Assembly: GCA_021513695.1 (NCBI GenBank)
Contig: CP084166.1
Span: forward strand, 864,001-928,000
From: Candidatus Heimdallarchaeum aukensis
GTDB lineage: Archaea > Asgardarchaeota > Heimdallarchaeia > Heimdallarchaeales > Heimdallarchaeaceae
Reading direction: 5' to 3'
DNA length: 64,000 nucleotides
Positions 1,843-51,903 of this stretch are shown here, in pieces. Positions within the stretch are counted from its first letter, which is position 1. Every line of letters starts with the position of its first letter. The position numbers and the translations under genes are program-made. The notes below the pieces were generated by a model. The model did no database searches, was not told where the DNA came from, and saw only the letters and a program-made list of their open reading frames with translations.

Positions 1843-1961
1843 GAAAAATCTCCTAATCACACAAATGGCTAAAAGACAACAAAAAATATAACTAAATAAA
1901 ATTTTCTAAAAATAAATTCTAAAAAAATATTTAATTCTTAAAAAAAAATCCAAAAAAAATT

Positions 1962-28007: not shown

Positions 28008-28340
28008 TTTCTATTATAAGAAGAAAAACTCTATTCTATAAAATTTTCGTAATCATAAATCATTGTGAAATCATGAATTAATATTCTAAGGAAATACACT
28101 TCACATTTTTTTATTTTGTATTTATAAACCTAGTAAACATATTATCTATTAAGAGAAAAAAATGGAATACTAAAACATTATTAGAAACTATAATCTATTA
28201 ATGTTAGATTTGCTCGCTAACTAAAAAAATCATTGCTTATTCCTAAACAATAAAAAGAACAACTAGAAAAATAAGTATCAAAGCATTATGTTTTAAAATT
28301 TTATGTATAATACTATTTCACGTATCATGATAAGCATAAA

Positions 28341-28500
28341 CTTGGTCTAACCTACTGTAACTCCGATCTTTTTTCAACCTCTCTTACTACAATTTTAGCC
28401 TTGCTCACCAGTCTATTAACTTCCTAACTTTGGAAAATAATTTATGAACCAACCCTAAGTTTTTGACATTCAAAAGTGTAACCCCCTATAGAGAGTGAAT
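28341..28500. repeat. Intergenic repeated element, copy A (intact); a homologous copy at 43246-43317 plus 44081-44200 is split by the IS6-like insertion
   Basis: Shared core cttggtctaacctactgtaactc[c/a]gatct...tttt...cctctcttactacaatttt. The downstream cttcctaac...aataatttat...caaaagt[gt]taaccc blocks align by eye between the two loci. Confidence 0.5.
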
Positions 28501-28773
28501 ATAAGAAATAAAAGCAAAAATCAATAAAAATTTTCTTATAGGTATTGTTTCTTTTTCTAAATTACACTTCTGAATCAGAAGCTGAAGTTGTATCAGAATA
28601 ACTGTTTAAATACAAATATGATGTTACAGACTTCATAAATTGTATTTCTTGGAGTTACATCAACTTATATAATAAAATCATAATACATAGTTTAACAAAG
28701 CTGGTGACTGATAACTTATTTTAGTAAAATGTATTCTTATTTTTCATATCAATTGTTGAAAATTTTATTATTT

Positions 28774-35740: not shown

Positions 35741-36790
35741 ATGGAGAAAAAATTCAAAAAAATTGCAATAGTAGAATTCGTGAGAACTCATTATGATTTT
35801 ATAATTTCAGTTCACGAATATTTATATAAAAAAGGATATAGAGATATTAAAATTCTAACATCATCAGAAATTTGGAAAGATATAGAATATCAACTAATAA
35901 AAATTGAAAATCATATTAATCCTACAAATGTATTTACAGCAGGTAAAGTAAAAAATTATTTCTATATTCTAAAGAATAATTTTGATGTTATTTATTTTAA
36001 TAGTTTTTACTATAGTTGGAAGAATATTATTGGTTTATTATTGCTAAAAATTTTAAAAAGAGACACAGATATAATATTAACTTTACACAATATTAGACGT
36101 CATTTTGAATATAAATCCAAGTTTAAATTTGCTCCTTTGAAAAAAATACTTATAACTGTTATAGATAAAAAAATCAATAAATATATTGTGCTTAACGAAA
36201 AATTGAAAGAATTTGCATCAAAATATACTAAAAAAGAAATTCTTGTAATACCCTTTAAAATACCCCTCAAACAAGAGATACTAACTGTTTACAAATATTC
36301 TTCTAGTTTTTATAAAATAATTATACCTGGTATAATTTCAAATAAAAGAAGAAATTATGATGAGTTAATCAAAGTAATAAAAAATGTTTTAAGTAAACGA
36401 ACAGATTTTAAATTTATACTTCTAGGAAGAATCGTATCAAAAGAGTTAATAGTCCCCCTTACACGTCTCAAACAACAGTTCCCCCAAAACATACAATTTT
36501 TCAGTAGTTATATCGAACAAGAATTGTTTGAAAAATACGTAATTGAATCAGATATTATTTTAGCGCCAATTAGGAAAAATGTCGATAGCAACCCTCAAGA
36601 ACAATATGGTTTAACAAAAGCTTCTGGTATTGAATTTGATGCTTATAAATATAAAAAACCAATATTAATTCCCAGTTTCTATGAAATACAAAATGATAAT
36701 ATTGATGTTACATATTTCAATACATATGATGATCTGACAAAAATACTGTTAAAATATCCGAAAAAAGATAGCTTTTTAATGAGTGCTTAA
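35741..36790 (+). CDS. Hypothetical protein, possibly a glycosyltransferase-like Rossmann protein
   Basis: 349 aa soluble K/I-rich ORF in the glycan locus with no diagnostic motif. Confidence 0.35.
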   Translation: MEKKFKKIAIVEFVRTHYDFIISVHEYLYKKGYRDIKILTSSEIWKDIEYQLIKIENHINPTNVFTAGKVKNYFYILKNNFDVIYFNSFYYSWKNIIGLLLLKILKRDTDIILTLHNIRRHFEYKSKFKFAPLKKILITVIDKKINKYIVLNEKLKEFASKYTKKEILVIPFKIPLKQEILTVYKYSSSFYKIIIPGIISNKRRNYDELIKVIKNVLSKRTDFKFILLGRIVSKELIVPLTRLKQQFPQNIQFFSSYIEQELFEKYVIESDIILAPIRKNVDSNPQEQYGLTKASGIEFDAYKYKKPILIPSFYEIQNDNIDVTYFNTYDDLTKILLKYPKKDSFLMSA

Positions 36791-37529
36791 AGGCTTCTAA
36801 AAACTCTAAGATAATAAATAGTGCTGAGTATAGTGTCGTATGTTCAATTTATAAAGCATAGACTCAGAAAAATAGATGAACACCCACAATTACTTAAACC
36901 TTTATTTCAACCTAGATTCCTTGATACCCCTACTAACAAACAGGTCGAGAAGGAAGATTAAAACAGTGAGAACGGGCTGGATAGTAGCCTTAGCGCTGAT
37001 ATGTGCGTCTTTTTCTACGAGATAAGAACAGTATACAGAGCGGTTAAACCTTGTGAATAAGAAAATACAAAGTATAACACAACATACATTCCGCAAAAAA
37101 CATCCATCTTCAACGTTTGCACAGAGATAAAAAACTCCAAATAGTCCACACAATCACGTTAATAGTAAGAATGCTTTGCTCTTCTCCCGAAACAGTAGAA
37201 GAGGACAGGACAGGATTCAAGGTAAAAGGGGGTTGATTTAGAGTATTGCTAATGGAGTCACGCTTTACATAAAAACAAAGTCATTTTGGAAAGTCCACAA
37301 GATTATAGATTCCCCGATATTCATCCTCTCGGTTGCCCTCTCTCATTTCTACCGTTATAACCCCACACGAACAAGAGCATTTTTCAGAACCTAGAGAAAA
37401 AGACTTCTATGTAGAATTAGAAGATTTCATGCAGATAAAGCCCATCATAACAACAAACTGGGAGGGGGTTTCTCATCCAAGAGAGAATCAAATTTATTAT
37501 CGAACTAAAACGTAAACGTCGATCATGAC

Positions 37530-38330
37530 CTAATTATATAAATCACCTTTTTTTCCTTTGGGGATTGCTAATAAATAACCTTGTATCGTATCTCTAATGT
37601 CTGTGAAATCTCTAAATGGATTAGGATTACCTATAATTATTTCCTTATTTTCGCTTTTAAGAATCTTTGCAATCTGATTAAAAATTACTAAAGTTACAAA
37701 CATAATTTCTCTGTTTGGTCCAGTATTATTATATCCTCTTGTAACAACAATAGGCAATCCATACATACTATGATATTTAAGACTAAATTGTTCAGTAGCT
37801 ACCTTACTAGCTTCATATGGAGACTGTGGTCTAAGCGAATTGTTTTCATTAATAGGTATTTCGCCTAGAGATGGTAATCCATATTCTACACTACTCTCTG
37901 CAATCTGAATATCAATATCTAAATCTGAATTTCTTATTATTTCTAAAAGATTTACAGTACTTTCAATATTTGTACGTACAGCTTCAATAGGCCCCCAAAA
38001 TGAGAAAAGAACAAGACTGTGCTGGTAAGTGAAAGATATAACTTGGTTGGACTTCTTTGATAGTTATTTCTAATGATGAATAATCAATAAGATTAGCTTC
38101 CTTAAGTATAGTTTTATTAAGAAATTTATCAATTTTTGGATTTATTGGATTAGATTGTCTTCTTACAATACTATAAATTTCAACTTCTTGTTCCACAGAT
38201 AGTATTTTTTCTACTAAAGAGCTACCTACAAATCCTAATGTGCCAGTAATCAGAACCTTTTCTTGATGAAAACATGATTTGTCATACAGATCTCTTTTTT
38301 CTTTAGAAAATTTATTTTTATATTCATTAA
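37530..38330 (-). pseudogene. Degraded paralog of the Gmd-like GDP-mannose 4,6-dehydratase at 48601-49704
   Basis: Fragments in different frames align to the intact gene. KVLITGTLGFVGSSLVEK matches RVLITGITGFVGSHLAEK. VRRQSNPINPKI...EANLIDYSSLE...PSYIFHLPAQS matches VVRRQSVPNFPNI...EANLIDYSSLE...PDYIFHLAAQS. YGLPIVVTRGYNNTGPNRE...IIIGNPNPFRDFTDIRDTIQGY matches YGLPIVITRGFNHTGPRRG...IIIGNPKPIRDFTFIEDMIQGY. Frameshifts and stops interrupt them. Confidence 0.75.
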
Positions 38331-38688
38331 TATTGTCTGGATATATTAAGAATTTGCTTGTTTCTCATATATTTCTCAGTAAATTTTATCTTCAAAGAGC
38401 ATAAATAAACTAACGCTTTCTTAGTTTTTAAATTTAATAGCAAGTATTTTAATTTAAACTCATTATTTTTTCAATTTTTTTTTAAAAAAATTTGAAGAAT
38501 AAAATGTAAGAATGAACAAACTTAAAATTAATAATTAAATTCTGCTTCATTAAAATGCATTATTTACTATTTAAATTGTAACTAAATACATAAATACATA
38601 TATACACATATTATTGAAAATAATAAGATAACTTTAACAAACAAATTTATTACAAAAAATAAGAAAAACTTCACATTGGGGGAAATTT

Positions 38689-39387
38689 ATGACAGAAGGA
38701 AAATACAATAATCTAGTTATATTAATTCCAACGCTAAATGAGGAAGATTCTATTGGTTATTTAGTGAACTCATGTAAAAAATTGACAGATAATGTAATTG
38801 TTGTTGATGGGTTATCAATTGATGATACAGTGGTAATCTCTAAGAAAGAAGGGGCAGAAGTGATTTATTGCAAGAAAAAGGGAAAAGGTAATGCTATTAT
38901 AGACGGTTTAAAATACGTATTGAAGAAACCAAATATTGAATATATCGCATATTTGGATGGAGATAGTACATATGACCCTTATGACATAAAAATTCTGTTA
39001 GACAAGATGTTAAATGAAAAAAAACTTGATGTAATAATTGGTAACAGATTACCAAAAAGAGAAAAAGGTTCTATAAAATTTATAAATATAATTGGCAATT
39101 ATTTATTTTCTTTTTTAATTAGTCTAATAAGTAGGGTAAAAATAAGTGATTCACAATCAGGTCTTCGTTTATTATCTAAAAAAGCAACTATGATATATTC
39201 AGATTGTCTAGAGTCTTCTGGTTTTGATATTGAAACTGAAATGATCATTAAAGGGTCGAGAAAAGGTATTAAATTTGGTGAAGTTCCTGTTAGCTATAGG
39301 TGTCGTGAAGGAAATTCTAAACTTAATCCTTTTAGAGATGGATTTAAGATTTTAAAAACGATTATAAAATATAGTTTTAAAAGATAG
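38689..39387 (+). CDS. GT2 dolichyl-phosphate sugar synthase-like glycosyltransferase (Dpm1/AglD/AglJ-type)
   Basis: LVILIPTLNEEDSIGYLVNSCKKL...VVDGLSIDDT...YLDGDSTYDP matches the GT-A architecture of polyprenyl-phosphate glycosyltransferases. 232 aa. Confidence 0.75.
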   Translation: MTEGKYNNLVILIPTLNEEDSIGYLVNSCKKLTDNVIVVDGLSIDDTVVISKKEGAEVIYCKKKGKGNAIIDGLKYVLKKPNIEYIAYLDGDSTYDPYDIKILLDKMLNEKKLDVIIGNRLPKREKGSIKFINIIGNYLFSFLISLISRVKISDSQSGLRLLSKKATMIYSDCLESSGFDIETEMIIKGSRKGIKFGEVPVSYRCREGNSKLNPFRDGFKILKTIIKYSFKR

Positions 39388-39479
39388 AATTTATATTCAT
39401 CTTACACTAAACTATAGTAATCAGATTTCTTTATATAAAACTATTTTTAATCCTTCATTCTATAACATTATAAAATTCT

Positions 39480-40309
39480 CTCCACGTTGATGTTTTAAAT
39501 TTATAAATGATATTAAAAAACTCTTATGGTGCACTTCCAAGGTGTTACAAATACAGACATAGATTGTACTTGAAATAATAGAGAATAAGACGCTTATGAT
39601 GATGGAAGAGAAGACGGTCACGCAACGAGATGAATACAAGTTTGATGAAAACAAAAATGTTTTCTACGGCAGATTTACAGGACACACAGAAGTGTTTTTA
39701 TTTACACAACCAGTGATAAGACTGTTAAAGACGTATTGAACGGTCTTGGAGATAACCTGTCTCATGGGTGGATTCGTGAAAGAAACGATAAAAATGAGTT
39801 AGCAAAAAAATACAAACATATTGATCCAAGATTTCTTTTTGTAAAAAAAAGATATAATTTAAGACCAACTGAAATACAAGGAGCATTTGGAATTCAACAA
39901 CTCAAGAAACTTGAAATATTCTTACGAACTAGAGAAGAAAATGCAAAATTTTGGATAGATAATTTGAACAAATATAGAAGCCTTATTCACATTCCAAAGA
40001 CTGAAACAAATATAAGACATGCATGGTTTGGATTTCCAATAGTTATTTATGAAAAAGCTGGATTTAAACATGATGATTTCATTAAAATATCTTGAAAACA
40101 ATAATATTGAAACTCGTCCAATTATGGCAGGAGATATAATTGAACACCCCGCTATGCACTATTATAACTGGAAACAAGTAAGAACACTAGAAAACTCTTC
40201 AAAGATAATAAAAAATGTTTTCTTCGTTGGAAATCATAGTAGCATTAAACAAAAAGAAAGAGAATACATTATGGATGTAATGAAATCATTTTTGGAAAAA
40301 AACACCTAA
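39480..40309 (+). pseudogene. Degraded C-terminal half of a DegT-family enzyme, paralog of 49730-50998
   Basis: TSDKTVKDVLNGLGDNLSHGWIRERNDKNELAKKY...RYNLRPTEIQGAFGIQQLKKLEIF...NNIETRPIMAGDIIEHPAMHYYNWKQ aligns to the intact copy (HGWIRERKDRSILAKKY...GYNLRPTELQGAFGIHQIKKLDDF...NNIETRPIMSGNITEHPALKYFKWRK). It is split over two frames. The upstream part is a GC-elevated, stop-rich remnant. Confidence 0.7.
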
Positions 40310-40344
40310 CTTTTTTTTAAATATTCATTAAAATCTTTTCTTTT

Positions 40345-41349
40345 AAAGCATGTCCAAAAATTAATTTTTATTAATGTGGGGGTTTATGTCGGAAGTATGA
40401 GTTTCTTTCAGATCATAGACCCCCACAAAGCAAGAGAATTCATAATCATTAATGAACCTTTCCTTAAGAAACTGGTGAAAGAGGAACCGAGAGAAAGTAA
40501 GAGAGGGAGAAAAAGAATAGCAGAAAGGTGGGTGATACTGGCTTTAGCGATCATTGCGAGAATAGAAGGAATTGCTTGGAGGAAGTTAGAGGAAAAGTTG
40601 TCTTTATGCGATTTTTTGATAGAAGAGGGGTGGATGAAGAAGATTCCTTCCAAATCTACTTTTCATGCAGTGTGGAGAGCGACAGAAAGTAAGTTGCTGG
40701 AGCGGTGGATAATAGATTTAGGTAGGGAAATAGTAAGGAAAAAAGGGTTGAAAGCTATGTCGGTGGATAGTTCAGGTTTTAAAATTCGTCAAGCTTCTGT
40801 TTGGCGTTTTCTCAAGTGGGCAAGAGGAGGACTAAAGAAAACCTCCAAACTTTTCTGGAAGATACACCTTATAGTTGGTTTACCCTCTCGAGCTATAGTC
40901 TCTCTTGCTCATTCTGCTAGTAACACTCACGATAGTAAAGTCTTCGGTTTACTATGGCAGAAACTTCCTTCTGCACTCTTGAGACCTTTCTTGAGATTCT
41001 ATGGAGACTGCGCTTACTGGACAGAAAATATCGTGGGACTTCTTAGCCAACATTCCTTTTTTCCTGTTATTCCTCCAAAAAGTAATGCTCGTTATCCCTC
41101 TCCTCCTCCTCTTGGACCAATAGTTCAAGCTCATCGTCTCTACCCTGGTCTCTATCGTCATAATCACCACCCCGAGTATCGTAGTAGTATTGAACATGTC
41201 TTTGGTCTCCTCAAACTCTCTCTTCCCCCGATTCTTGATCGCTTACCCTCCACCATCCTCTCTACCTTGTACAGTTCTCTTCTCTGTTACAACTACCTTT
41301 TACTCCTTCGGACTGTATAGTTGGTGAAAAAGAATTTTTGGACATGCTT
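40345..41349 (+). mobile_element. IS4/IS5-superfamily insertion sequence, copy 1 (about 1005 bp, 18-bp perfect terminal inverted repeats AAAGCATGTCCAAAAATT)
   Basis: Identical to the copy at 47464-48469 over its whole length except for one A insertion in copy 2. The inverted repeats were read at both ends. Flanks suggest a 3-bp duplication (TTT here, AAT at copy 2), but AT-rich flanks make that weak. Confidence 0.85.
40376..41320 (+). CDS. DDE transposase of the IS4/IS5 superfamily
   Basis: C-terminal YRSSIEHVFGLLK fits the R-x3-E-x6-K (YREK) signature of IS4/IS5 transposases. The ORF fills the element. Confidence 0.8.
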   Translation: MGVYVGSMSFFQIIDPHKAREFIIINEPFLKKLVKEEPRESKRGRKRIAERWVILALAIIARIEGIAWRKLEEKLSLCDFLIEEGWMKKIPSKSTFHAVWRATESKLLERWIIDLGREIVRKKGLKAMSVDSSGFKIRQASVWRFLKWARGGLKKTSKLFWKIHLIVGLPSRAIVSLAHSASNTHDSKVFGLLWQKLPSALLRPFLRFYGDCAYWTENIVGLLSQHSFFPVIPPKSNARYPSPPPLGPIVQAHRLYPGLYRHNHHPEYRSSIEHVFGLLKLSLPPILDRLPSTILSTLYSSLLCYNYLLLLRTV

Positions 41350-41397
41350 TTTTAATAGAACATTAAATATTTATATCTATATATTATGTAACTATCA

Positions 41398-42543
41398 ATG
41401 AAAATAGCTATAATTAATCAATTTACCACACCAGAAGCTGGAGGGCACGAAATAAATTTAGCCAAACTATTACATAAAAAAGGACATGAACCTGTAATAA
41501 TAACTTCTGAATATAAGAATCCTAACCTAACCAATTATAAACTTATTAAGGCAGATGTGAAGAAGGATAAAGAACTCTGTTCTTTTAAAATTATAAGACT
41601 AAAAACTATATTTGCCTATTCAGAATTCCCAATTGTGACAGGAATGGATAAAATAATAGCTGAACTTAAACCAGACATTATTAATATTCATGAATTTTTT
41701 CAATACACTAGCTATAAAGGATACAAGTTAGCGAAAAAAAACAAAATACCTATTGTATTAACTCAACACTGTTATTACTTTCCACCCAGTTTTTTGAATA
41801 GATTAGGTATGAAAATTACAACTAAACTTTGGGGAAAAAAAATAATCAAGAATAGTGATGGACTTATAGCTATAGCTGAAAGCTCTAGTAAATTTCTAAA
41901 GGAAGTATCAAAAAATCCAAGATTGAAAGTAAACATAATACCAACGCCATTAGAATTGGATCAATTTCTTGAAATTATACCAGATTTTACTAAAAAATCA
42001 GAAAGTGATATTTTTAGAATATTATATGTTGGAAGAGTAGATGAGAGAAAAGGGATAAAATATTTGTTAGATGCTATGTCAATAGTAACAAAAAGATTCT
42101 ATAAACAAAAAATTGTTTTAGATATTGTTGGAAGAGGAGCAGATTTAAAGAAGTTTAAAAGATATGCAAGAGACAGAAATATTTGTGCAAAATTTCATGG
42201 ATTTGTTGAACATCAAAACATTTCAAAATTTTATAAAAAAGCTAATGTTTTTGTTTTACCCACAATTACAAAAGAACCATTCGGCAACGTAGCAGTTGAA
42301 GCTTTAGCGTCTGGGATCCCAGTTATTGCAAGCAAATTAGGAGGACTAGTAAATATTGTTCAAGAAGGTGCAGGATTTTTAGTTCAACCAAAAAATGCAG
42401 AAGAAATAGCTAATGCAATTACAAAGTTTTTAGATAATCCACTCTTATTAAAAAATTACAGTAAGAATGCAAAAGATCTTGGGTTCAGATTTGCAAATGA
42501 GCCTATAAATTCAATTATAGAGTTATTTCAGAATCTTATTTAA
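41398..42543 (+). CDS. GT4 glycosyltransferase
   Basis: EPFGNVAVEALASGIPVIASKLGG EX7E motif. N-terminal MKIAIINQFTTPEAGGHEINLAKLLHKKGHEPVII matches the GT4 N-domain. Confidence 0.85.
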   Translation: MKIAIINQFTTPEAGGHEINLAKLLHKKGHEPVIITSEYKNPNLTNYKLIKADVKKDKELCSFKIIRLKTIFAYSEFPIVTGMDKIIAELKPDIINIHEFFQYTSYKGYKLAKKNKIPIVLTQHCYYFPPSFLNRLGMKITTKLWGKKIIKNSDGLIAIAESSSKFLKEVSKNPRLKVNIIPTPLELDQFLEIIPDFTKKSESDIFRILYVGRVDERKGIKYLLDAMSIVTKRFYKQKIVLDIVGRGADLKKFKRYARDRNICAKFHGFVEHQNISKFYKKANVFVLPTITKEPFGNVAVEALASGIPVIASKLGGLVNIVQEGAGFLVQPKNAEEIANAITKFLDNPLLLKNYSKNAKDLGFRFANEPINSIIELFQNLI

Positions 42544-42585
42544 ACATGTTTCTGAACTAAATATTGTTTAAGTAATCACAAAGAG

Positions 42586-43030
42586 ATGGATATAAAAATG
42601 GACATTAATAAATTCAAAAATCAAAACATCTTGATAATTAGTGAAAATGGTTTTATTGGTTCTCACCTTTTTCTAAAGCTTAGACATTTATCTAAAAATA
42701 TTATTAGAACAGTTTATTCACATAATTCAGAGAAAAATCAATTGTACAAATTTTACTATATCCATGTATTATTTGTTCAGCTGATGATTTAGAAGATGAA
42801 TATGCAATTGATGGGATTTAATAGATGTGTTTCATCTATAGGTAAATATTTAGTTTTTCCATAAACCAGACCAGATGATGAAAATACAAATTTTGAATCC
42901 TCTTGATATTTTCTAATGTTTTCCATTATATTTAAAGTTCCAAAAGTATTGACTTGATAACAAAGCTCTGGCTTTTTTATTGATTCATAAACATCAATTA
43001 AACTTGCTAGGTAATATATGATATTGAAAT
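42586..43030. pseudogene. Disrupted NAD-dependent sugar epimerase/dehydratase: N-terminal fragment on + strand (42586-42792) and the following mid-gene segment inverted on - strand (~43030 to 42790)
   Basis: The + strand encodes NILIISENGFIGSHLFLKL (Rossmann GxxGxxG start). The - strand encodes YLASLIDVYESIKKPELCYQVNTFGTLNIMENIRKYQEDSKFVFSSSGLVYGKTKYLPIDETH, which is the segment that normally follows in the same orientation. The C-terminal part is absent. Confidence 0.55.
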
Positions 43031-43245
43031 TTTAAAATTATTACAATAATATCCTACAAACGATTTGGTTATACTATTAAGATATATAAGTGAAGTAGAT
43101 AAAATAAATAAAAACTACCTCACTTTTAAATCTTTATAAGTTTAGTTCTTTATAAATTTTGGTTAATCTTACTACATTTTTCTCATTATAATACTTTTTT
43201 TTATTATTTTTTTATTTATCATGAGACATTCATGAAATGTAGAGA

Positions 43246-43317
43246 CTAGGTCTAACCTACTGTAACTCAGATCTCTTTTTTTCTTCCTCTCTTATTACAA
43301 TTTTCCCCCTTCACTAG
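43246..43317. repeat. Left half of repeated intergenic element copy B; the right half resumes at 44081
   Basis: ctaggtctaacctactgtaactcagatctc...cctctcttattacaatttt matches 28341-28395. Confidence 0.45.
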
Positions 43318-44080
43318 GGTAGTGTCTAGTTTTTATACCACCTCCTAGGTAAAAAGGAACTAAGGGGAGGATGTCCCAAGCTCTGATGAGGACGAACGAA
43401 ATTATAATGGAGCATAAAGAGAGTAAGAAAACCAGAAAGATGAGTAGAGCCATAGACGGCACGGATAGGACAAGTGCAGTGGAGAATAGAATGAAACCAA
43501 CGATAACTCTTAAGAGTAGCATTAAAACGTTCAATATAGGAGCGTAAACCACCTTTGATAACGGAGATTTTGATACCTAGACGAAGTAAGACAGGATACC
43601 ATACCCCTGCATCTGTAACGACAATACGGGGCTTAAAACCCCAACATTTGAGCCAATAACGGAAAGTTAGTAAACATTCAAGATTACTCCGTCCTTTAGT
43701 AATACTAAAACCCAGTAAAGTCTTGTTGTAAGGATCTAACGCGAACCACAGATATATTGAGCCTTGAGAGGTCCTAATCTCTGTTTCATCTACTACTATA
43801 ATCTCTGGTATTCCCCCTCTCTCTGCTACAACTCTATGTAAACTTTCCCTAAAGAGCCTGAACTTCTTTACCCAATACCATAATGTTTGATGCGTTAAAC
43901 CATTCTTCCATGCTACTGTCCTCAACCCATTCTTTGAACCAATATATTCATAAATCGCTTTTATTATTATTTTTTTGGGGACTCTGCATCTCTTAAAAAG
44001 AGCAGATAGTTTTTGTGTTTTCATATCTTACTATTAGAGTCCCCACAAATATTTTTGTCGGAAGAAAACTAGACACTACC
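43318..44080 (-). mobile_element. IS6-family-like insertion sequence (about 763 bp, 16-bp perfect terminal inverted repeats GGTAGTGTCTAGTTTT, 9-bp direct target duplication CTTCACTAG)
   Basis: The inverted repeats start with GG as in the IS6 family. The CTTCACTAG duplication sits at 43309-43317 and 44081-44089. The single ORF spans almost the whole element. Confidence 0.75.
43326..44024 (-). CDS. DDE transposase, IS6-family-like
   Basis: 232 aa. VVDETEI, VVTDAGVWY and IERFNATLKSYRW blocks resemble the D, D and E/K regions of IS6/IS26-type transposases. There is an N-terminal HTH-like region. Confidence 0.7.
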   Translation of the reverse strand: MKTQKLSALFKRCRVPKKIIIKAIYEYIGSKNGLRTVAWKNGLTHQTLWYWVKKFRLFRESLHRVVAERGGIPEIIVVDETEIRTSQGSIYLWFALDPYNKTLLGFSITKGRSNLECLLTFRYWLKCWGFKPRIVVTDAGVWYPVLLRLGIKISVIKGGLRSYIERFNATLKSYRWFHSILHCTCPIRAVYGSTHLSGFLTLFMLHYNFVRPHQSLGHPPLSSFLPRRWYKN

Positions 44081-44437
44081 CTTCACTAGCCTCCTAACCT
44101 TCTTATATTAGAGAAATAATTTATTAAAAGAAACATTTTTCTAGTACCCAAAAGTATAACCCATGTCTATCGAGTGAACAACTAGGGAAATAGTAATCAA
44201 AAATTCTTCATATATTGAATAATCTGATATTGGATATTTGAAATTAAGTCCAATTTCCGCTTACAAATTCCTCTTTTGAAGTTTTGTATATACTTCTTTA
44301 TACATGCATATTATAAAATGAAAACATAAGCTTAATTTATATTCTTCTTTTTGACATATTATTTTAATCATTATAGAGAAAAATAGAGTTTCAATTAGAA
44401 AAAATAAATTTTTATTATAGAAAAAAAATATTAACTT

Positions 44438-45394
44438 GTGAGTTTTATATTGCGTGAGATGATAACAATGAATTCAGATTTATCACTAAAAGACAAGAAA
44501 ATTTTATTAACAGGTGGTAGTGGTTTTTTTGGAAGTTTTATTCTTGATGAATTAAATAAAGAGGAAGTTTCTGAAATTATTGTACCAAGGTCATCAAGGC
44601 ATGATTTACGTAATAGAGATGATGTACAAGATGTAATGGACGGAGTTGACATCGTAATACATGCTGCAGGAATTGTATCTGGTATTGGGGGAATTCAAGA
44701 AATACCTGCAAAAATTTTTTATGATAACGCAATAATGGGCTTGCATATAATGGAAGAAGCAAAAAATTTTGGAATTAAGAAATTAGTAAATATAGGTACT
44801 GCTTGTTCATATCCCAAATTTGCACCTATACCCTTAAAAGAGAAAGATTTATGGGCTGGATATCCTGAAGAAACCAAAGCTTCTTATGGTATCGCTAAAC
44901 GTTTACTAGTAGAAGGTGCAAGAGTTTATCATCATCAATATAATTTAAATGTTATCCCACTAATAATATTTAATCTATATGGACCTCGTGACAATTTTGA
45001 TTTAGCTACCTCTCATGTAATACCTGCTTTAATTCGAAAATGCTTAGAATCAAACAAGTTAGTGGTTTGGGGAGATGGAACTCCAACAAGAAGTTTTTTG
45101 TATGTCAAAGACGCAGCAAAAGCTGTGATATTGGCAACAAAAAAATATAATAAACATTACCCTGTAAATATAGGTACATCTGAAGAAACTAGTATTAAAA
45201 ATCTTGTAGAATTAATAGCTGAATTAACTGGTTTTAATGGTGAAATAATCTATGATAAAACAAAACCTAATGGACAACCTAGGCGATGTGCAGATGTTTC
45301 GTTAGCAAAAAAAGAATTTAATTTTGAAGCTAAATATTCATTAAAACAAGGATTAAAGGAAACAATTGATTGGTATAAAAAAAATTTTAACTGA
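44438..45394 (+). CDS. GDP-4-keto-6-deoxy-D-mannose 3,5-epimerase/4-reductase family (GDP-L-fucose synthase Fcl/WcaG or GDP-colitose synthase ColC-like)
   Basis: KKILLTGGSGFFGS Rossmann start. NIGTACSYPKFAPIPLKEKDLWAGYPEETKASYGIAKRLLVEG...LYGPRDNFDLATSHVIPALIRK aligns closely with the Fcl blocks (SSCIYPK...EPTNEPYAIAK...LYGPHDNF...SHVIPALLRR) from memory. Confidence 0.75.
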   Translation: MSFILREMITMNSDLSLKDKKILLTGGSGFFGSFILDELNKEEVSEIIVPRSSRHDLRNRDDVQDVMDGVDIVIHAAGIVSGIGGIQEIPAKIFYDNAIMGLHIMEEAKNFGIKKLVNIGTACSYPKFAPIPLKEKDLWAGYPEETKASYGIAKRLLVEGARVYHHQYNLNVIPLIIFNLYGPRDNFDLATSHVIPALIRKCLESNKLVVWGDGTPTRSFLYVKDAAKAVILATKKYNKHYPVNIGTSEETSIKNLVELIAELTGFNGEIIYDKTKPNGQPRRCADVSLAKKEFNFEAKYSLKQGLKETIDWYKKNFN

Positions 45395-45559
45395 AAATTT
45401 TGACTTTTTTGTTTAATTTTAATTAATTACTGTTATATCACGATATTCATAAATAAAAGTTATTGATAACAATGTAGAAATAATTAATTATTAGAAATCT
45501 CAATTTTAATTCTTCAGTGATCCTTCTGGAGGAAGTTTTATGTTTTCAGAAAAAAAATA

Positions 45560-45830
45560 TAAATCCATCCCTACCATAAATGATGCGTAAAATCCACGAT
45601 CATAAATCTTTCGCCATACATATGAATTATTTTTGTTTGGTGGATAATTAATAATACAGGATTTATGATTTTAGGGAGAATTAGTGGTAGCAGCATATTT
45701 ATCAATCTTTAAAATTGGCTAACATATACATTAGCATTCTGCATTGTTAGAATATAGCAAAGATAAGAACCAAGAAAAACTGAACCACCAGTTACAAAAA
45801 TACTTTGATTCTCAATTTTTATTTCTCTCT
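45560..45830 (-). pseudogene. Fragment of another NAD-dependent sugar epimerase/dehydratase (N-terminal Rossmann segment only)
   Basis: The minus strand encodes EKREIKIENQSIFVTGGSVFLGSYLCYILTMQNANVYVSQF followed by stops and frame changes. No intact start or continuation. Confidence 0.45.
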
Positions 45831-46202
45831 TTTTTAAATTATTGTATTTTAATCTTCATTGATGAATATAAAAATTAATTTGGTTATATATAAAAATCTA
45901 TATCAATTTTAATATGGCTTTTAGAAAATAAAATTTATTTTAGTTTTAAAACAATGAAGAGGATTATTTAAAAGAAAATTGTTAAAAGAAAAAATTAATA
46001 TTCATAAGTTCACATAAAATAGCCACAAACTATTAAGATAATGGAATAAATAGGAAACAGATATTCATATGACTATAAAAGTATATGATTTTTGTCTTTT
46101 AGAATAGAAAATACAAATTTTTTTTGTAGATGTAATTCTAAATATCCCTTTACTTTTAATAAAAACCTAATCTTTATAATAAGATTAGTAATTATTCTTC
46201 AT

Positions 46203-47333
46203 ATGGATAAAGTTATAATAATTGGTCCCTCTTCAAAATTCTTAAGTGGTATCACATATTATACAATTAATATAGCAAATTTGTTAAGAAAAGATAAAAA
46301 AATTTTTATTTTTGAAATAGATCAATTATTACCAAAATTTTTATTTCCTGGGTCAGGAAGAGTGGGTAAAATACAAACAATCTCTACTTATAAAGAAGAA
46401 GTCTCAGTTAGCCATATTAAAATGAAATATTATTCAATACCTTCAATAATTAAAGCAGCAAAGTCTATAAACATGTTAAAACCAAAGGTAGTAATCTTTC
46501 AATGGTGGTCTTGTACAGTAGCACACATTTATTATTTTTTAATAAAACTTATTTCAAAAGAGATTAAAATCATTTTTGAGTTTCATGAAATTTTAGATAC
46601 AAGCGAAGCTTCATTTTTTCTTCTAAAAATTTATACGAGTTTGATGATGAAATTGTTGTTAAAGGAAGTTACAATATTTATAACTCATTCAGTTTCCGAT
46701 AAGAAAAAAGTAATAAAAACTTATAAAATAGATGAAAGCAAAATTCAAGTTATACCTCATCTTACAACAACTACCTATTCTTTAATAAGTAAAAATATTG
46801 CTAGAAAAAAATTTAATTTACCAATGAACTCAATCGTCTTGGTATTTTTTGGATTAATTAGAAAATATAAAGGAATCAACATTTTAGTTAAAGCTTTTGA
46901 ACAATTAAAAATAAACAGCTTAAAAAAGCCATTACTTATTATTGCTGGAGAGATATGGGATCCATTAGACAAGAAAACTAACAAGATAATAAATGAAAAT
47001 AGAAATATTATTCTTATTAACAAATACTTATCAGATGAGGAGGTAGAATATTTAATCTCTGCTGCAGATTGTTTTGTATTACCATATACTAGAGCATCTC
47101 AGAGTGGAGTATTAAGTATAATACATAATACAGGCAAACCTGTAATATTATCTGACATAAAAGAATTCGTGGAAGCTTCAAAACATTATAGTAATTCTAT
47201 TTTCTTTAAGAGAAATGATATTATAGATTTAAAATCAAAAATAGAAAAATTCACTAAAAATCATAATGATTTTAATATTAAGCCAGTTAACAACAATGAA
47301 AGAGTTAAAGAATTATATCTTTCTGTAATGTAA
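46203..47333 (+). CDS. GT-B (GT4-like) glycosyltransferase
   Basis: Likely start MDKVIIIGPSSKFLSGITYY; the ORF track begins 37 codons earlier. The C-terminal nucleotide-sugar-binding-like region ISAADCFVLPYTRASQSGVLSIIHNTGKPVILSDI is a degenerate EX7E. Confidence 0.55.
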   Translation: MDKVIIIGPSSKFLSGITYYTINIANLLRKDKKIFIFEIDQLLPKFLFPGSGRVGKIQTISTYKEEVSVSHIKMKYYSIPSIIKAAKSINMLKPKVVIFQWWSCTVAHIYYFLIKLISKEIKIIFEFHEILDTSEASFFLLKIYTSLMMKLLLKEVTIFITHSVSDKKKVIKTYKIDESKIQVIPHLTTTTYSLISKNIARKKFNLPMNSIVLVFFGLIRKYKGINILVKAFEQLKINSLKKPLLIIAGEIWDPLDKKTNKIINENRNIILINKYLSDEEVEYLISAADCFVLPYTRASQSGVLSIIHNTGKPVILSDIKEFVEASKHYSNSIFFKRNDIIDLKSKIEKFTKNHNDFNIKPVNNNERVKELYLSVM

Positions 47334-47463
47334 TTATATATTTCTAAAAGAGGAGATAAAATCATTGTTACGCTTACAGACAAGCTATTATGAATCGAAA
47401 TTCTCAAATGAAAGTAATATTATATGTTTTTGTCTATCTTCAATTAAATATTAAATAATTAAT

Positions 47464-48469
47464 AAAGCATGTCCAAAAATTAATTTTTATTAATGTGGGG
47501 GTTTATGTCGGAAGTATGAGTTTCTTTCAGATCATAGACCCCCACAAAGCAAGAGAATTCATAATCATTAATGAACCTTTCCTTAAGAAACTGGTGAAAG
47601 AGGAACCGAGAGAAAGTAAGAGAGGGAGAAAAAGAATAGCAGAAAGGTGGGTGATACTGGCTTTAGCGATCATTGCGAGAATAGAAGGAATTGCTTGGAG
47701 GAAGTTAGAGGAAAAGTTGTCTTTATGCGATTTTTTGATAGAAGAGGGGTGGATGAAGAAGATTCCTTCCAAATCTACTTTTCATGCAGTGTGGAGAGCG
47801 ACAGAAAGTAAGTTGCTGGAGCGGTGGATAATAGATTTAGGTAGGGAAAATAGTAAGGAAAAAAGGGTTGAAAGCTATGTCGGTGGATAGTTCAGGTTTT
47901 AAAATTCGTCAAGCTTCTGTTTGGCGTTTTCTCAAGTGGGCAAGAGGAGGACTAAAGAAAACCTCCAAACTTTTCTGGAAGATACACCTTATAGTTGGTT
48001 TACCCTCTCGAGCTATAGTCTCTCTTGCTCATTCTGCTAGTAACACTCACGATAGTAAAGTCTTCGGTTTACTATGGCAGAAACTTCCTTCTGCACTCTT
48101 GAGACCTTTCTTGAGATTCTATGGAGACTGCGCTTACTGGACAGAAAATATCGTGGGACTTCTTAGCCAACATTCCTTTTTTCCTGTTATTCCTCCAAAA
48201 AGTAATGCTCGTTATCCCTCTCCTCCTCCTCTTGGACCAATAGTTCAAGCTCATCGTCTCTACCCTGGTCTCTATCGTCATAATCACCACCCCGAGTATC
48301 GTAGTAGTATTGAACATGTCTTTGGTCTCCTCAAACTCTCTCTTCCCCCGATTCTTGATCGCTTACCCTCCACCATCCTCTCTACCTTGTACAGTTCTCT
48401 TCTCTGTTACAACTACCTTTTACTCCTTCGGACTGTATAGTTGGTGAAAAAGAATTTTTGGACATGCTT
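47464..48469 (+). mobile_element. IS4/IS5-superfamily insertion sequence, copy 2 (identical to copy 1 apart from a single extra A)
   Basis: Same inverted repeats and internal sequence as 40345-41349. gggaaaatag here versus gggaaatag in copy 1 (~47836). Confidence 0.85.
47495..48440 (+). pseudogene. IS4/IS5 transposase gene, frameshifted (split into 47495-47890 and 47868-48440)
   Basis: A 1-nt insertion in an A-run breaks the reading frame relative to copy 1. This could be a genuine inactivating mutation or a homopolymer sequencing error. Confidence 0.75.
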
Positions 48470-48600
48470 TAATAATTAAATACTAAATAATAATTTAATA
48501 ATTAAATATTAAATAATAAAAAAATTTATTTTGGAATACATATTCTATTTTAATTTCTAAAAGAAAAAAATATAAAAATATTTGAATCTTTACATTAAGT

Positions 48601-49704
48601 ATGTTATCAGAAAAAGAAATTTTCCGTGAAATAAATGCTAAACATAAAAAAATTCTTATAGATCCTGAAAATTTAGATTCTTATTTGTCAAATTTTGATA
48701 AAGAAAAAAAAGATTTATTTGATCCAAAAAAACTAGAAGGTTCTAGGGTTTTAATTACCGGTATTACCGGATTTGTAGGAAGTCATTTAGCAGAGAAACT
48801 TGTAGGATTAGACTCTGATATTGATGTTTATGGTGTTGTGCGAAGACAATCTGTACCTAACTTCCCAAATATTAAACATATTGTTAATGACATAAATCTA
48901 ATAGAAGCAAATTTGATAGATTATTCTTCTTTAGAACATACTATTAATAATGTAGAACCAGACTATATTTTCCATCTAGCAGCTCAATCTTTTGTACCAA
49001 CTTCTTTTATTGCACCAATTGAGTCTGTAACAATAAACATTCAAGGAACAGTAAATTTACTTGAAATTCTTCGTAAAAGTGAAATTAATTTCAGTGGAAT
49101 TCAAGTTGCCTGCAGTAGTGAGCAATATGGACTTGTCTATCCTGATGAAGTTCCAATAAATGAGAACAATCCATTTAGACCACAATCACCTTATGCTGTT
49201 AGTAAAATAGCAACTGAAAAATATAGTTTAACTTATCATAGAGCTTATGGTTTACCAATTGTAATTACAAGAGGTTTTAATCATACAGGTCCAAGAAGAG
49301 GAATAAAGTTTGTTACTTCAGTAATCGCAAGTCAAATCGCAAATATTATTAATGGCAAAGGAAATAAGATAATAATCGGAAACCCCAAACCAATAAGAGA
49401 TTTTACATTTATTGAAGATATGATACAAGGATATATTTTATCAATAATAAAAGGAAAAAGAGGTGAGGTTTACAATCTTGGTCATGGATTTGGAATTAGT
49501 ATAGAGAATTTGATTAAACTTACTGCATCTATTTACGATGTTAGCTATGAAATTGAAATTGATAAATCAAGATATCGACCAGCAGAGGTAAACATTCTTG
49601 TATGTGATTATTCAAAAGCTAAAAAAGAACTAGGTTATTATCCACAATATTCGTTAGTTGAGACTATCAGAAAAATTGTTGAATTTTACTTAGAAAAAAC
49701 GTAA
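48601..49704 (+). CDS. gmd: GDP-mannose 4,6-dehydratase-like (Gmd family) NDP-sugar dehydratase
   Basis: RVLITGITGFVGSHLAEKL, VVRRQS, DYIFHLAAQSFV, PYAVSKIATEKY (YxxxK) and especially GFNHTGPRRGIKFVT resemble Gmd blocks (IVRRSS, YNLGAQSHV, FNHESPRRG) recalled from memory. It has a 45-aa N-terminal extension. Confidence 0.7.
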   Translation: MLSEKEIFREINAKHKKILIDPENLDSYLSNFDKEKKDLFDPKKLEGSRVLITGITGFVGSHLAEKLVGLDSDIDVYGVVRRQSVPNFPNIKHIVNDINLIEANLIDYSSLEHTINNVEPDYIFHLAAQSFVPTSFIAPIESVTINIQGTVNLLEILRKSEINFSGIQVACSSEQYGLVYPDEVPINENNPFRPQSPYAVSKIATEKYSLTYHRAYGLPIVITRGFNHTGPRRGIKFVTSVIASQIANIINGKGNKIIIGNPKPIRDFTFIEDMIQGYILSIIKGKRGEVYNLGHGFGISIENLIKLTASIYDVSYEIEIDKSRYRPAEVNILVCDYSKAKKELGYYPQYSLVETIRKIVEFYLEKT

Positions 49705-49729
49705 TCTTAAATTATAGGGTGATTTTATA

Positions 49730-50998
49730 ATGAAGTTAGAAACAGCATTGAATGAAATTAAGAATATTGTAGATATGTATTTCTCTGAAAATGATATTTA
49801 TAAAGATGAAACGAAGATAAGGCTTATTGCTCCTTCATATGGAACTAAAGAAGTGATAGAAGTAATAGAATCACTTCTTTCCACTAATGTAACAATGGGT
49901 AAAAAAGTTAGTGAATTTGAAAATATGTTTTCAACATACTTAAATGTGAAATATGGTACTATGGTAAATTCTGGTTCAAGTGCAAATTTAATAGCTCTTC
50001 AAATTTTATCAAATCCTGCTATTAGAAATAATATTAAACCTAAAGACGAAATTATTACTCCAGCTTTAACTTGGTCTACTACTGTTTTTCCAATGTTTGA
50101 TATTCATGCAGTTCCTGTATTTGTTGATGTGGATCCTAAAACTTTGACTATTGATGTTAACCAACTAAAAAGCGCTTTATCTAAGAAAACTAAGGCAATA
50201 ATGCCAGTTCATCTTTTAGGTCATCCATGTGATATGGACTACATAACAGAATTTGCTGAAGATAATTCATTGTACATAATTGAAGATTGTTGTGAAGCTC
50301 ATGGAGCAATGTGGAAAGGTAAGAAAGTTGGTAGTTTTGGTGATATCGGTACTTTTAGTTTCTTTTTTTCTCATCATATATCTACGATAGAGGGTGGGAT
50401 TGTTGTTACTAATAACGAAGAATATAATCTTTTATCAAAATCTTTGAGGGCCCATGGTTGGATTCGAGAGAGAAAAGATAGGTCGATTTTAGCTAAAAAA
50501 TATCCTTTTATCAGTGAAAAATATCTTTTTATAAATAAAGGATATAATTTAAGACCTACAGAACTTCAAGGCGCATTTGGAATACATCAAATTAAGAAAT
50601 TAGATGATTTCATTAAAATTAGAGAAGAAAATGCAAAATATTGGTTATCTGAACTTGATGAAATAAAGCATCTTATACAGTTACCAACCATTAAGAAAGA
50701 TGTTAAGCATTCATGGTTTGGTTTTCCCTTAATAGTTAAAGATGAAGCTCCATTTAAAAAAGATGACTTAATTCAATATCTTGAATTAAATAACATTGAA
50801 ACTCGTCCAATTATGTCAGGTAACATTACAGAACATCCAGCTTTAAAATATTTCAAATGGCGTAAGATCGGTAATTTGGAAGTATCCTCGAAAGTTATGA
50901 AGAATGGCTTTTTCTTTGGTAATCATCTAGGTATTAAAAACTACGAAAGAGAATTTATTGCGGAGAAAATTAGAGAGTTCATAGATTATAAAACTTAG
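49730..50998 (+). CDS. DegT/DnrJ/EryC1-family PLP enzyme with His replacing the Schiff-base Lys: ColD-like NDP-4-keto-6-deoxyhexose 3-dehydratase rather than a classical aminotransferase
   Basis: The block GSFGDIGTFSFFFSHHISTIEGGIVVTN aligns to the family consensus ...SFhgnKiittgEGG... with H at the K position, read by eye. The remaining blocks (HGWIRER, NIETRPIM) are standard DegT. Confidence 0.65.
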   Translation: MKLETALNEIKNIVDMYFSENDIYKDETKIRLIAPSYGTKEVIEVIESLLSTNVTMGKKVSEFENMFSTYLNVKYGTMVNSGSSANLIALQILSNPAIRNNIKPKDEIITPALTWSTTVFPMFDIHAVPVFVDVDPKTLTIDVNQLKSALSKKTKAIMPVHLLGHPCDMDYITEFAEDNSLYIIEDCCEAHGAMWKGKKVGSFGDIGTFSFFFSHHISTIEGGIVVTNNEEYNLLSKSLRAHGWIRERKDRSILAKKYPFISEKYLFINKGYNLRPTELQGAFGIHQIKKLDDFIKIREENAKYWLSELDEIKHLIQLPTIKKDVKHSWFGFPLIVKDEAPFKKDDLIQYLELNNIETRPIMSGNITEHPALKYFKWRKIGNLEVSSKVMKNGFFFGNHLGIKNYEREFIAEKIREFIDYKT

Positions 50999-51081: not shown

Positions 51082-51903
51082 TTATCTTTCTATAATTATT
51101 ATGTATCTTTTTCTTGTTCCTGCTTTGATTTCTATATAACCACACTCTTTTTTTTCACAAAACAACCTACGTAATTTCTCCAATTGGTTTTTGTTCATTA
51201 ATTGTAAAGTAATCAAATTAATTCTAACGTCATTATTATTCATTGCTTCATTCAGCAATTTAATAGCAAAATCTAACTCTCTCTCTCCAGCAATAAGTTC
51301 AGATTGTACTCCTTTCCACCCCCTTTGTTTTTCAAGTTTCGTCAAATCTGCAGGATAGATGGGTGGGTAACACATTAAAGCTGTGTATTTTCCTTCAGGT
51401 ACAATTTCTTTTATTATTTGCCCTTCTGATTTAATCAAAGTTATTAAGCTGCTTAATTTATTTTTCACTATATTTCTTTGTGCTAGTTGATAAGATATTT
51501 CATTTATTTCTGTAGCTAAAACTTTTCTCTTGTATTTTTTAGCGAGTAGCATTGCTATTGCTGCACTGGCTCCTGTCCCAATCTCGATTATAGGGTAGGA
51601 AAAGTTTGCAATTTTACTTGTGAGCAGTTCATTTATTGCTTCGACGTAAGCCATTCTTAGACTATAAGAAGGAATTAAGTGCCCTTTTGGTAGTTCAATA
51701 TCTAAATCTGCTAATTCTTTAAACAAGCACTTATTAAGTTCTGATAGAGTTTCAGGATCACCCAAATCAAATTTAGGAGGATTTTTGCTTATTAAGTATT
51801 TCTCCAATTTAGGGTATTTAGCAACTAATTTTTCGAATTTCATCCCTAAATGCTTAGCTTCTATAATTTTTAGTGGTTCTTTAATCATGCTTAGTCCTAT
51901 CAT
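51082..51903 (-). CDS. Class I SAM-dependent methyltransferase, RlmF/METTL16-like (N6-adenine RNA MTase type)
   Basis: SAM motif IIEIGTGASAAIAMLLAKK and an NPPF-like MCYPPIYPAD motif. Confidence 0.5.
   Translation of the reverse strand: MIGLSMIKEPLKIIEAKHLGMKFEKLVAKYPKLEKYLISKNPPKFDLGDPETLSELNKCLFKELADLDIELPKGHLIPSYSLRMAYVEAINELLTSKIANFSYPIIEIGTGASAAIAMLLAKKYKRKVLATEINEISYQLAQRNIVKNKLSSLITLIKSEGQIIKEIVPEGKYTALMCYPPIYPADLTKLEKQRGWKGVQSELIAGERELDFAIKLLNEAMNNNDVRINLITLQLMNKNQLEKLRRLFCEKKECGYIEIKAGTRKRYIIIIER

Follow-up and report, generated by a model that had tools for sequence, protein, structure and literature searches.

Decayed nucleotide-sugar genes in a surface-glycan locus of the Asgard archaeon Candidatus Heimdallarchaeum aukensis

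Three decayed sugar genes and the insertion sequences around them

The Heimdallarchaeum lineage is, according to its genome paper, the clade phylogenetically closest to eukaryotes (PMC8813620). We analyzed a 64,000-nucleotide stretch of the closed 3.08-Mb genome of Candidatus Heimdallarchaeum aukensis (contig CP084166.1, positions 864,001 to 928,000; hereafter the window), and within it a group of nucleotide-sugar genes that appear to have decayed among intact glycosyltransferase (GT) genes and insertion sequences (ISs). The proteins of this region are UJG41568-UJG41583. Profile scans of the open reading frames (ORFs) showed that ~1-51 kb of the window, which has a GC content of ~27%, is a single very large glycan locus that includes rmlABCD, three sulfotransferases, three Wzx-like flippases and many GT2 and GT4 genes, an AglJ-like GT2 among them. 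Inside this locus, the region at 36.8-45.8 kb would be the wreck of a sugar cassette ancestral to the genus Heimdallarchaeum. Transposases are abundant in the genome, with 11 transposase/integrase families and up to 27 copies, and the word "pseudogene" is absent from the genome publication (PMC8813620).

Two references served for comparison. One is the locus of the sister species, H. endolithica (L003; CP084167.1), where the gene order is GT2 (on the minus strand), a GT4 of the type we call GT4-376, IS fragments, Gmd, DegT, a second GT4 (GT4-381) and a 314-aa epimerase. The two species share 90% average amino acid identity (AAI) genome-wide (PMC8813620), and protein identity across the glycan locus is far below that average, at 47-86%. 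The other is a sister strain, represented by contigs L004, L014 and L015 of JGI metagenome 3300033149, which were obtained through cluster look-ups and exact-sequence look-ups and are 95-98% identical to the window. By tblastn and blastn, every element of the decayed region has a counterpart in L003. In tblastn, the fragments of Gmd, DegT and the epimerase align to intact proteins of H. endolithica at 67-81% identity, with E-values from 5e-17 to 1e-109.

The first decayed gene encoded a Gmd-like nucleoside diphosphate (NDP)-hexose 4,6-dehydratase. A preliminary description of this DNA had placed a decayed copy at 37530-38330; frameshift-aware alignment and tblastn uphold the pseudogene but move it to 38402→37480 on the minus strand, where residues 1-310 of ~365 can be aligned. 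It is 72-74% identical to the H. endolithica orthologue (P0001) and 53-60% identical to the intact paralogue at 48601, and when repaired its nearest database relative is an H. endolithica GDP-mannose-4,6-dehydratase-like protein, at 74%. The start codon is retained. Relative to the orthologue, there is a stop at codon 9, single-nucleotide deletions at codons 15 and 292, a 2-nt deletion at codon 132 and an in-frame 3-nt deletion at codon 165, and ~55 C-terminal codons are gone together with the 3' end. Of these lesions, the codon-9 stop and the codon-15 frameshift occur in both the window and the sister strain. The truncated 3' end abuts a decayed IS5-family relic (36788-37466).

The second is a DegT-family, RfbH/ColD-like sugar 3-dehydratase-like gene on the plus strand (39721-40309), in which only residues 227-422 remain. 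Homology spans 39721-40306 and includes one +1 frameshift at ~40086; the first 226 codons are deleted, the cofactor site among them. This pseudogene, too, had been noticed before, with a start at 39480. It is real, but that start had to be given up: 39388-39720 does not align to DegT, and homology is detectable only from 39721.

The third gene is an epimerase in two pieces. Piece 1 (42598-42750, plus strand) corresponds to codons 1-51 of a 314-aa short-chain dehydrogenase/reductase (SDR) of the epimerase/reductase type; it is 67% identical to the H. endolithica orthologue (tblastn, E=5e-17) and collinear with L003 up to 13801. Piece 2 (42751-43031, minus strand) corresponds to codons 68-160 of the same gene, with one frameshift. 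By tblastn, it is 81% identical to the orthologue over residues 68-141 (E=3e-34); the frameshift-aware alignment, which maps it to 43031-42752, gives 77 identical residues of 94; blastn gives 82.6% against L003 14129→13850; and the Pfam GDP_Man_Dehyd profile scores 55.5 bits. Codons 52-67 and 161-314 are deleted. The two pieces directly abut, and the inverted segment measures 281 bp. The earlier reading of an epimerase split by a local inversion, then given as 42586-43030, is correct, since the two pieces correspond to complementary stretches of a single H. endolithica protein. At the breakpoints, no inverted repeat exceeded 6 bp. For all three genes, no remnant of the missing parts (the DegT N-terminus and the Gmd and epimerase C-termini) was found anywhere in the window.

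A further epimerase, thought to survive as an N-terminal stub at 45560-45830, did not hold up in the same way. The candidate is a Rossmann-type stretch on the minus strand (45727-45830; IFVTGGSVFLGSYL) with a TGGSxFLGSYL motif. Against the Pfam Epimerase profile, the 45560-45830 interval scored 11 bits (E=0.26, not significant), a database search found no homologue of it, and its scores against the local SDRs were near a shuffle background that had been measured with another query. The segment 45624-45886 is absent from both sister-strain contigs compared. An epimerase stub is plausible but unproven here, the motif being what points to it.

The three IS copies of the preliminary description are all present, two of them from the IS5 family. 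ISa (40344-41350, plus strand, 1007 bp) lies between the DegT pseudogene and GT4-381, is bounded by 18-bp perfect terminal inverted repeats (AAAGCATGTCCAAAAATT) and carries an intact 314-aa DDE transposase (40376-41320). The idea that it lacks a target duplication was dropped, as the empty site in L014, which joins 40346 to 41350, reveals a duplication of 3-5 bp. ISb (47463-48470, plus strand) also has a 3-5 bp target duplication, and its empty site in L004 joins 47465 to 48474. The two copies differ solely by one extra A in ISb (AAA→AAAA, ~47847-47850), which splits its transposase into ORFs of 131 and 190 aa; this is the frameshifted transposase noted earlier. Pfam PF01609 (DDE_Tnp_1) scores 41 bits against a cut-off of 23, and the NCBIfam IS5 equivalog NF033579 scores 67 bits, below its cut-off of 140. 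With a DDE_Tnp_1-type transposase, terminal inverted repeats, a short target duplication and several copies, the element belongs to the IS5 family, as a distant member of the superfamily that is assigned to no named subgroup.

The third copy is an IS6-family element on the minus strand (43318-44080, 763 bp) with 18-bp perfect terminal inverted repeats and a 232-aa transposase (43326-44024). It is flanked by an 8-bp target duplication (TTCACTAG), and L014 has the empty site, with 43317 joined to 44080. An 8-bp duplication is a hallmark of IS6. The transposase falls below the curated cut-offs (Pfam rve_3, 24.8 against 26.5; NCBIfam IS6, 49 against 125), and we place the element in IS6 by its rve-type transposase of ~230 aa, its size of ~0.8 kb, its terminal inverted repeats and its 8-bp duplication. 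At least eight full-length copies at ≥90% identity occur in H. aukensis, and others in H. endolithica. The sister strain is free of all three insertions and has precise empty sites, at which the duplicated target sequence is present once.

Two older IS remnants had been overlooked. The one that abuts the Gmd pseudogene (36788-37466, plus strand) is a heavily decayed relative of ISa and ISb: transposase residues 14-221 align at ~29% identity, interrupted by several stops and frameshifts, and a degenerate left terminal repeat is found at 36788. Its frameshift-aware alignment score is 86 (shuffle mean 34.3, sd 3.9), and it is collinear at 95% in sister-strain contig L015. It accounts for a GC-richer patch at 36.8-37.5 kb that we had considered, and rejected, as an RNA gene; Rfam and tRNA scans of the whole window gave no match. 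A GT4-like ORF (35741-36790) runs into the degenerate repeat, its stop codon (36788-36790) falling on the first repeat bases, and the old insertion may have clipped or redefined the 3' end of that ORF.

The other remnant is the 3' end of an rve-type transposase gene together with the end of its element (43229-43317 and 44090-44292, plus strand, ~205 bp), recognizable by a YNFxRPHQSL motif and interrupted by the IS6-family element. Copies at ≥75% identity lie at 28325-28521 in the window, at 9726-9960 in L003 (upstream of Gmd) and at 1-114 in L004 (upstream of Gmd2, the intact dehydratase described below). In three of the four cases, the relic closely precedes a nucleotide-sugar gene on the same strand (the Fcl-like gene described below, Gmd or Gmd2); it might act as a common anchor for recombination or as a promoter that points outward.

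Intact GT genes separate the decayed ones. A GT2 of the AglJ-like, dolichyl-phosphate hexose transferase type (38689-39387, plus strand; Pfam PF00535, NCBIfam AglJ 176 bits) is transcribed divergently from the Gmd pseudogene and is 84% identical to its H. endolithica orthologue, with a ratio of nonsynonymous to synonymous divergence (omega) of 0.14. GT4-381, a 381-aa protein by Pfam a GT4 (41398-42543, plus strand), has its orthologue next after DegT in H. endolithica (83% identity, omega 0.105). GT4-376, a 376-aa protein (46203-47333, plus strand), is 77% identical to its H. endolithica orthologue. Among JGI metagenome contigs scanned with GT4-381, only relatives at 24-43% were found.

Neutral decay and differences between strains

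The truncations of Gmd, DegT and the epimerase, and the epimerase inversion, are also present in the sister strain, and each strain carries later lesions of its own. Those of the sister strain include a stop in the DegT pseudogene in L014 and a frameshift in L004. We compared substitutions between the window and the sister strain in the pseudogene blocks and in the intact genes. The pseudogene blocks contain 49 substitutions in 1264 bp (3.9%), spread evenly over codon positions 1, 2 and 3 (16:16:17), with 37 nonsynonymous and 12 synonymous changes and seven indel columns. In the intact genes, there are 97 substitutions in 6882 bp (1.4%), with a codon-position distribution of 19:14:64, 43 nonsynonymous and 54 synonymous changes and no indel columns. 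By Fisher test, p=4e-4 for the contrast in nonsynonymous and synonymous changes and p=5e-8 for the difference in rate. This neutral pattern implies that the fragments are non-functional and drifting. With homology to intact relatives, disabling lesions and neutral evolution found together, we conclude from the sequences that the three nucleotide-sugar genes of the cassette are pseudogenes evolving neutrally. Frameshift-aware realignment, which had been proposed as a check, thus bears out three decayed nucleotide-sugar genes.

The strains differ in arrangement as well. A 1455-bp segment that carries GT4-376 (45887-47341) is absent from this position in the sister strain and lies instead, inverted, at 43085-43089 (L014 2202-3655; the site compared in L004 is 272-274). 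The 8-bp sequence TTATATAT/ATATATAA flanks the segment in both strains, with an imperfect, shorter copy at one L014 junction, and each empty site appears to hold one related copy. In the sister strain, the DegT pseudogene is interrupted in the interval 39859-39988, with a different junction there, and a 58-bp filler connects part of it to sequence flanking the 3' side of DegT2, the intact DegT homologue described below. We considered a single 11-kb inversion between the strains and dismissed it: at its left end, L014 should then continue with sequence from beyond 51030, and no such match is seen. The differences do not reduce to a simple series of events, and the contigs may derive from more than one haplotype. 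In L014, unrelated sequence (1-118) interrupts the DegT pseudogene at 39988; its minus strand opens an outward-reading ORF (MNKPKRNLANLRKIVVK...). This inserted sequence has no match in the window and may belong to another mobile element.

A third arrangement was found on contig L005 of the same metagenome (Ga0366834_1091108; 1-4105), which reads IS5 (minus), a 382-aa ORF that matches no family, Gmd3, DegT3 and IS5 (plus). Gmd3 and DegT3 are 78% and 73% identical to Gmd2 and DegT2. The two ends of the contig (1-114 and 3993-4105), inverted relative to each other, match the left end of ISa/ISb at 99% identity, and the contig stops inside both copies, so that the sugar genes lie as cargo between two copies of one IS, as in a composite transposon. 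A comparison of strains, likewise suggested beforehand, thus did turn up differences in presence, absence and position. The preliminary description had seen rapid cassette turnover at this locus, and the data favor that view: the locus is hyper-divergent, the sister strain lacks the three ISs and has the GT4 segment elsewhere, and a third cassette sits between inverted IS copies.

Ancestry of the dead cassette and of the divergent pair

Downstream of ISb lies an intact pair (48601-50998, plus strand; Pfam): Gmd2, a 367-aa 4,6-dehydratase, and DegT2, a 422-aa RfbH/ColD-like protein. Gmd2 is a generic NDP-hexose 4,6-dehydratase (NCBIfam gmd, 178 bits against a cut-off of 415), and the dehydratase carries ~45 additional N-terminal residues characteristic of an Asgard clade. 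DegT2 reads SHHIS where aminotransferases have the catalytic lysine, and its best NCBIfam match is RfbH, which acts as 3-dehydrase in the synthesis of 3,6-dideoxyhexoses, at 366 bits, below the cut-off of 423. An Fcl-like SDR (44468-45394, plus strand), annotated in GenBank as GDP-L-fucose synthase and recognized by Pfam, scores 245 bits against a cut-off of 500 for the NCBIfam GDP-fucose synthase; it is likely the final reductase/epimerase of the working pathway. Gmd2, DegT2 and the Fcl-like SDR plausibly make a colitose-like 3,6-dideoxyhexose, an assignment that follows family resemblance, with every score below the equivalog cut-off.

The pseudogenes are closer to H. endolithica than this intact pair is. 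By tblastn, the Gmd and DegT pseudogenes are 72-76% and the epimerase pseudogene 67-81% identical to the H. endolithica proteins, and Gmd2/DegT2 64%; nucleotide identity is 79-83% for the pseudogenes and 69% for Gmd2/DegT2. Synonymous (dS) and nonsynonymous (dN) divergence from H. endolithica (Nei-Gojobori) tells the same story. The intact neighbors (GT2, GT4-381 and GT4-376) have dS 0.60-0.87 and dN 0.085-0.131; the pseudogenes have dS 0.71-1.02 and dN 0.144-0.149 (Gmd against P0001, dS 0.71 and dN 0.149; DegT, dS 1.02 and dN 0.144); and Gmd2/DegT2 have dS 1.60-1.65 and dN 0.28. In a neighbor-joining tree, the Gmd pseudogene pairs with P0001 in 100 of 100 bootstraps, and Gmd2 groups with the strain variant P0007 and with P0006 in 97 of 100; a sequence from a Helarchaeota metagenome-assembled genome (MAG; P0002), 75% identical to Gmd2, adjoins the latter group. 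The DegT pseudogene, GT4-381 and the epimerase pseudogene also follow one another in the same order as DegT, GT4 and epimerase in L003.

Taken on identity, divergence, tree and gene order, the dead genes are best read as vertical orthologues of the intact H. endolithica cassette (Gmd, DegT, GT4 and epimerase). Our preferred interpretation, to which we give a probability of roughly 0.78, is that this ancestral cassette died and that a divergent alternative is now in use. The intact set had been described as the survivor of a formerly larger repertoire. The dead copies behind that idea are real, but they would represent the vertical cassette of the genus, and the intact pair a divergent lineage (dS ~1.6). 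As the omega of the pseudogenes is barely raised, inactivation would be recent relative to the species split; as both strains share lesions, it would predate the split of the strains.

These data suggest a sequence of events. Compared with H. endolithica, the orientation of GT2 and Gmd is reversed with respect to GT4-381, the epimerase and the remaining 3' part of DegT. Gene order points to an inversion of at least ~2.2 kb, with one breakpoint in DegT (~codon 227), that would have flipped GT2 and Gmd. A deletion beside the old IS5-family relic would then have removed the 5' portion of DegT along with the 3' terminus of Gmd, since the inversion would place these two missing parts together, exactly where the relic sits. 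In the SDR gene, as the two abutting pieces indicate, a 281-bp segment was inverted and the rest of the gene deleted. The two IS5-family copies and the IS6-family copy inserted later, each with its target duplication, as the empty sites of the sister strain attest. Sugar-nucleotide synthesis would now be carried out by Gmd2/DegT2 and the Fcl-like reductase, with a 3,6-dideoxyhexose-type sugar for surface glycans or N-glycans as the likely product. The second pair most probably came as an alternative cassette, given that a third variant lies between inverted copies of the ISa/ISb element, and the resident genes would then have been redundant and free to decay.

Could the genes instead be intact in the organism, with the lesions introduced during assembly? 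For the genome, Illumina reads were assembled with SPAdes, and Nanopore reads from multiple displacement amplification served to scaffold the contigs (PMC8813620), which lends the idea some initial appeal, and contigs from run SRR15988958 (L097 and L098) do contain homopolymer indels, the prevailing error type there, that split intact GT2 and GT4 genes; we rejected these contigs as a third haplotype because they represent the same strain as the window with such errors. The lesions of the sugar genes, however, are not homopolymer slips, and all lie in unique sequence. In the independent Logan assembly of run SRR15988954, one contig agrees with the window at every position of 41324-43345 (100% identity), a 16.9-kb contig gives the same gene calls over the Gmd/GT2/DegT region up to the end of ISa, a further contig has the same gene set from Gmd2 onward, and breaks occur only at IS copies. 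The 78-aa Epimerase and 119-aa DegT called as genes there are pieces of the pseudogenes. Moreover, the codon-9 stop, the codon-15 frameshift, the truncations and the inversion recur in another metagenome at 96-98% identity, and an assembly error would be unable to produce a neutral substitution pattern. We therefore consider an artefact scarcely credible for the sugar genes. The ISb frameshift may be an exception: it is the only lesion that could have arisen in assembly, a single extra A in a short A-run, within a repeat that short reads cannot span and where Illumina contigs break. If the fragments are real, they might still be silent donor cassettes in a programmed, shufflon-like or phase-variable switch between glycan types, which the change in site and orientation of the GT4-376 segment, the flanking copies of TTATATAT at both sites (one imperfect) and the different DegT junction in the sister strain would fit. 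Yet the window has no inverted repeats of 60 nt or more, and those at the epimerase breakpoints are negligible, as noted above; Pfam scans of the ORFs of the region found no recombinase or invertase gene; an 8-bp AT-only repeat is weak evidence in a 27% GC genome; and the fragments, truncated and neutrally evolving, are unable to regenerate functional genes. Such switching is very improbable.

A more serious contender, though still unlikely, is ancient paralogy with reciprocal loss, in which the ancestor had both cassettes, H. endolithica lost type 2, H. aukensis is losing type 1 and nothing was acquired horizontally. Both Gmd types belong to one Asgard-dominated clade and share the N-terminal extension, and GT4-376 lies directly upstream of Gmd2 in the window as it does upstream of Gmd in H. 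endolithica. On the other hand, Gmd2 is closer to the Helarchaeota MAG protein (75%) and to the IS-flanked cassette (77%) than to the type-1 gene of its own genus (65%). The relic upstream of Gmd2 in L004 is, by eye, much more like the H. endolithica relic than are the adjoining genes (69%), which suggests a recombination boundary. A profile search of genome contigs with the Gmd alignment showed one Gmd locus in H. endolithica among the matches listed, which were mostly distant bacterial Gmd homologues and from which H. aukensis itself was absent. Replacement of the ancestral cassette by a divergent one remains our preferred interpretation, and several points weigh against it: the two cassettes could be old paralogues lost reciprocally; the omega of the pseudogenes against H. 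endolithica is 0.14-0.21, only slightly above that of the intact neighbors; the order of rearrangements rests on two genomes and short metagenome contigs; and the sister-strain contigs may mix more than one strain, as L004 and L014 carry different relic copies.

Whether Heimdallarchaeum has a dedicated or semi-dedicated mechanism for moving its glycan genes as discrete cassettes is a separate matter. The GT4-376 segment at two sites, the IS5-flanked cassette of L005 and the ~200-bp relic at the 5' edge of several sugar cassettes are what raise the idea, which we regard as improbable on present grounds. If it were true, this Asgard archaeon would possess a system that diversifies its surface glycans through the exchange of cassettes.

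Relation to known systems and neighboring features

Decay of this kind is familiar from bacterial surface-polysaccharide loci and is documented here unusually cleanly in an Asgard archaeon. The rfb loci of Shigella and E. coli and the cps loci of pneumococci are laden with ISs and contain remnant sugar genes. Like bacterial O-antigen and capsule loci, the region described here is low in GC, has intact GTs amid broken nucleotide-sugar genes and ISs, exchanges sugar cassettes between close relatives and is far more divergent than the genome around it. Unlike them, it resides in an Asgard host and has an archaeal agl/N-glycan-type look (AglJ-like GT2, Wzx-like flippases and sulfotransferases), its ISs are archaeal IS5 and IS6 members, and it is without conserved flanking housekeeping genes or JUMPstart-type elements. 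In haloarchaea, N-glycosylation (agl) clusters are reportedly replaced in a strain-specific manner. The present locus resembles those clusters in that it, too, is given to archaeal surface glycosylation, varies between close strains and has ISs associated with it; it differs in that the replaced genes persist as datable pseudogenes, the sister species keeps the intact version and the replacement is caught mid-way.

The intact sugar genes bear comparison with the GDP-colitose and CDP-3,6-dideoxyhexose pathways (Gmd/RfbG, ColD/RfbH(E1) and ColC/reductase), with which they share a 4,6-dehydratase followed by a DegT enzyme with histidine in place of the Schiff-base lysine and an Fcl-like reductase nearby. 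In contrast to those pathways, the scores here are below the NCBIfam equivalog cut-offs and the dehydratase carries its ~45-aa extension. Similarly, the dehydratase/3-dehydratase cassette of L005, held between two inverted IS5-family copies, recalls a composite transposon, but the contig holds only 114 bp of each IS and the arrangement lies outside the window itself.

The comparison provides a datable, internally controlled case of surface-glycan cassette replacement in an Asgard archaeon, with H. endolithica showing the ancestral cassette, the sister strain a stage at which the ISs had yet to insert and the closed genome the decayed state. It indicates that Asgard surface glycans undergo the same rapid, IS-assisted turnover as bacterial O-antigen and capsule loci, and such turnover is relevant to virus-host and syntrophic-partner recognition in these archaea.

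Several neighboring features deserve mention. An Eco57I-type methylase gene (22127-24004) and a Methyltransf_10 gene (51082-51903) are 27 kb apart in the window and neighbors in H. endolithica, and their products are 47% and 62% identical to the counterparts there. Their separation and low identity imply that the rearranged, hyper-divergent zone reaches well past the decayed region. At 19537-21450, a 637-aa FG-GAP/beta-propeller protein with TSP3-type calcium-binding repeats is probably a surface protein; it contains seven tandem 135-bp units (20104-21048) that are 66-76% identical. A 688-aa multi-pass membrane protein without a Pfam match (31258-33324) belongs to the glycan locus in each of the two species, its H. 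endolithica counterpart (L003 1614-3701) having 695 aa, and could be a polymerase or an oligosaccharyltransferase-like component. Finally, a GC-richer patch contains a 486-aa TnpB/Cas12f-like ORF with a Pfam Cas12f1-like TNB domain (57666-59126); in H. endolithica, a 157-aa fragment 86% identical to the C-terminus of this protein directly follows the epimerase gene.

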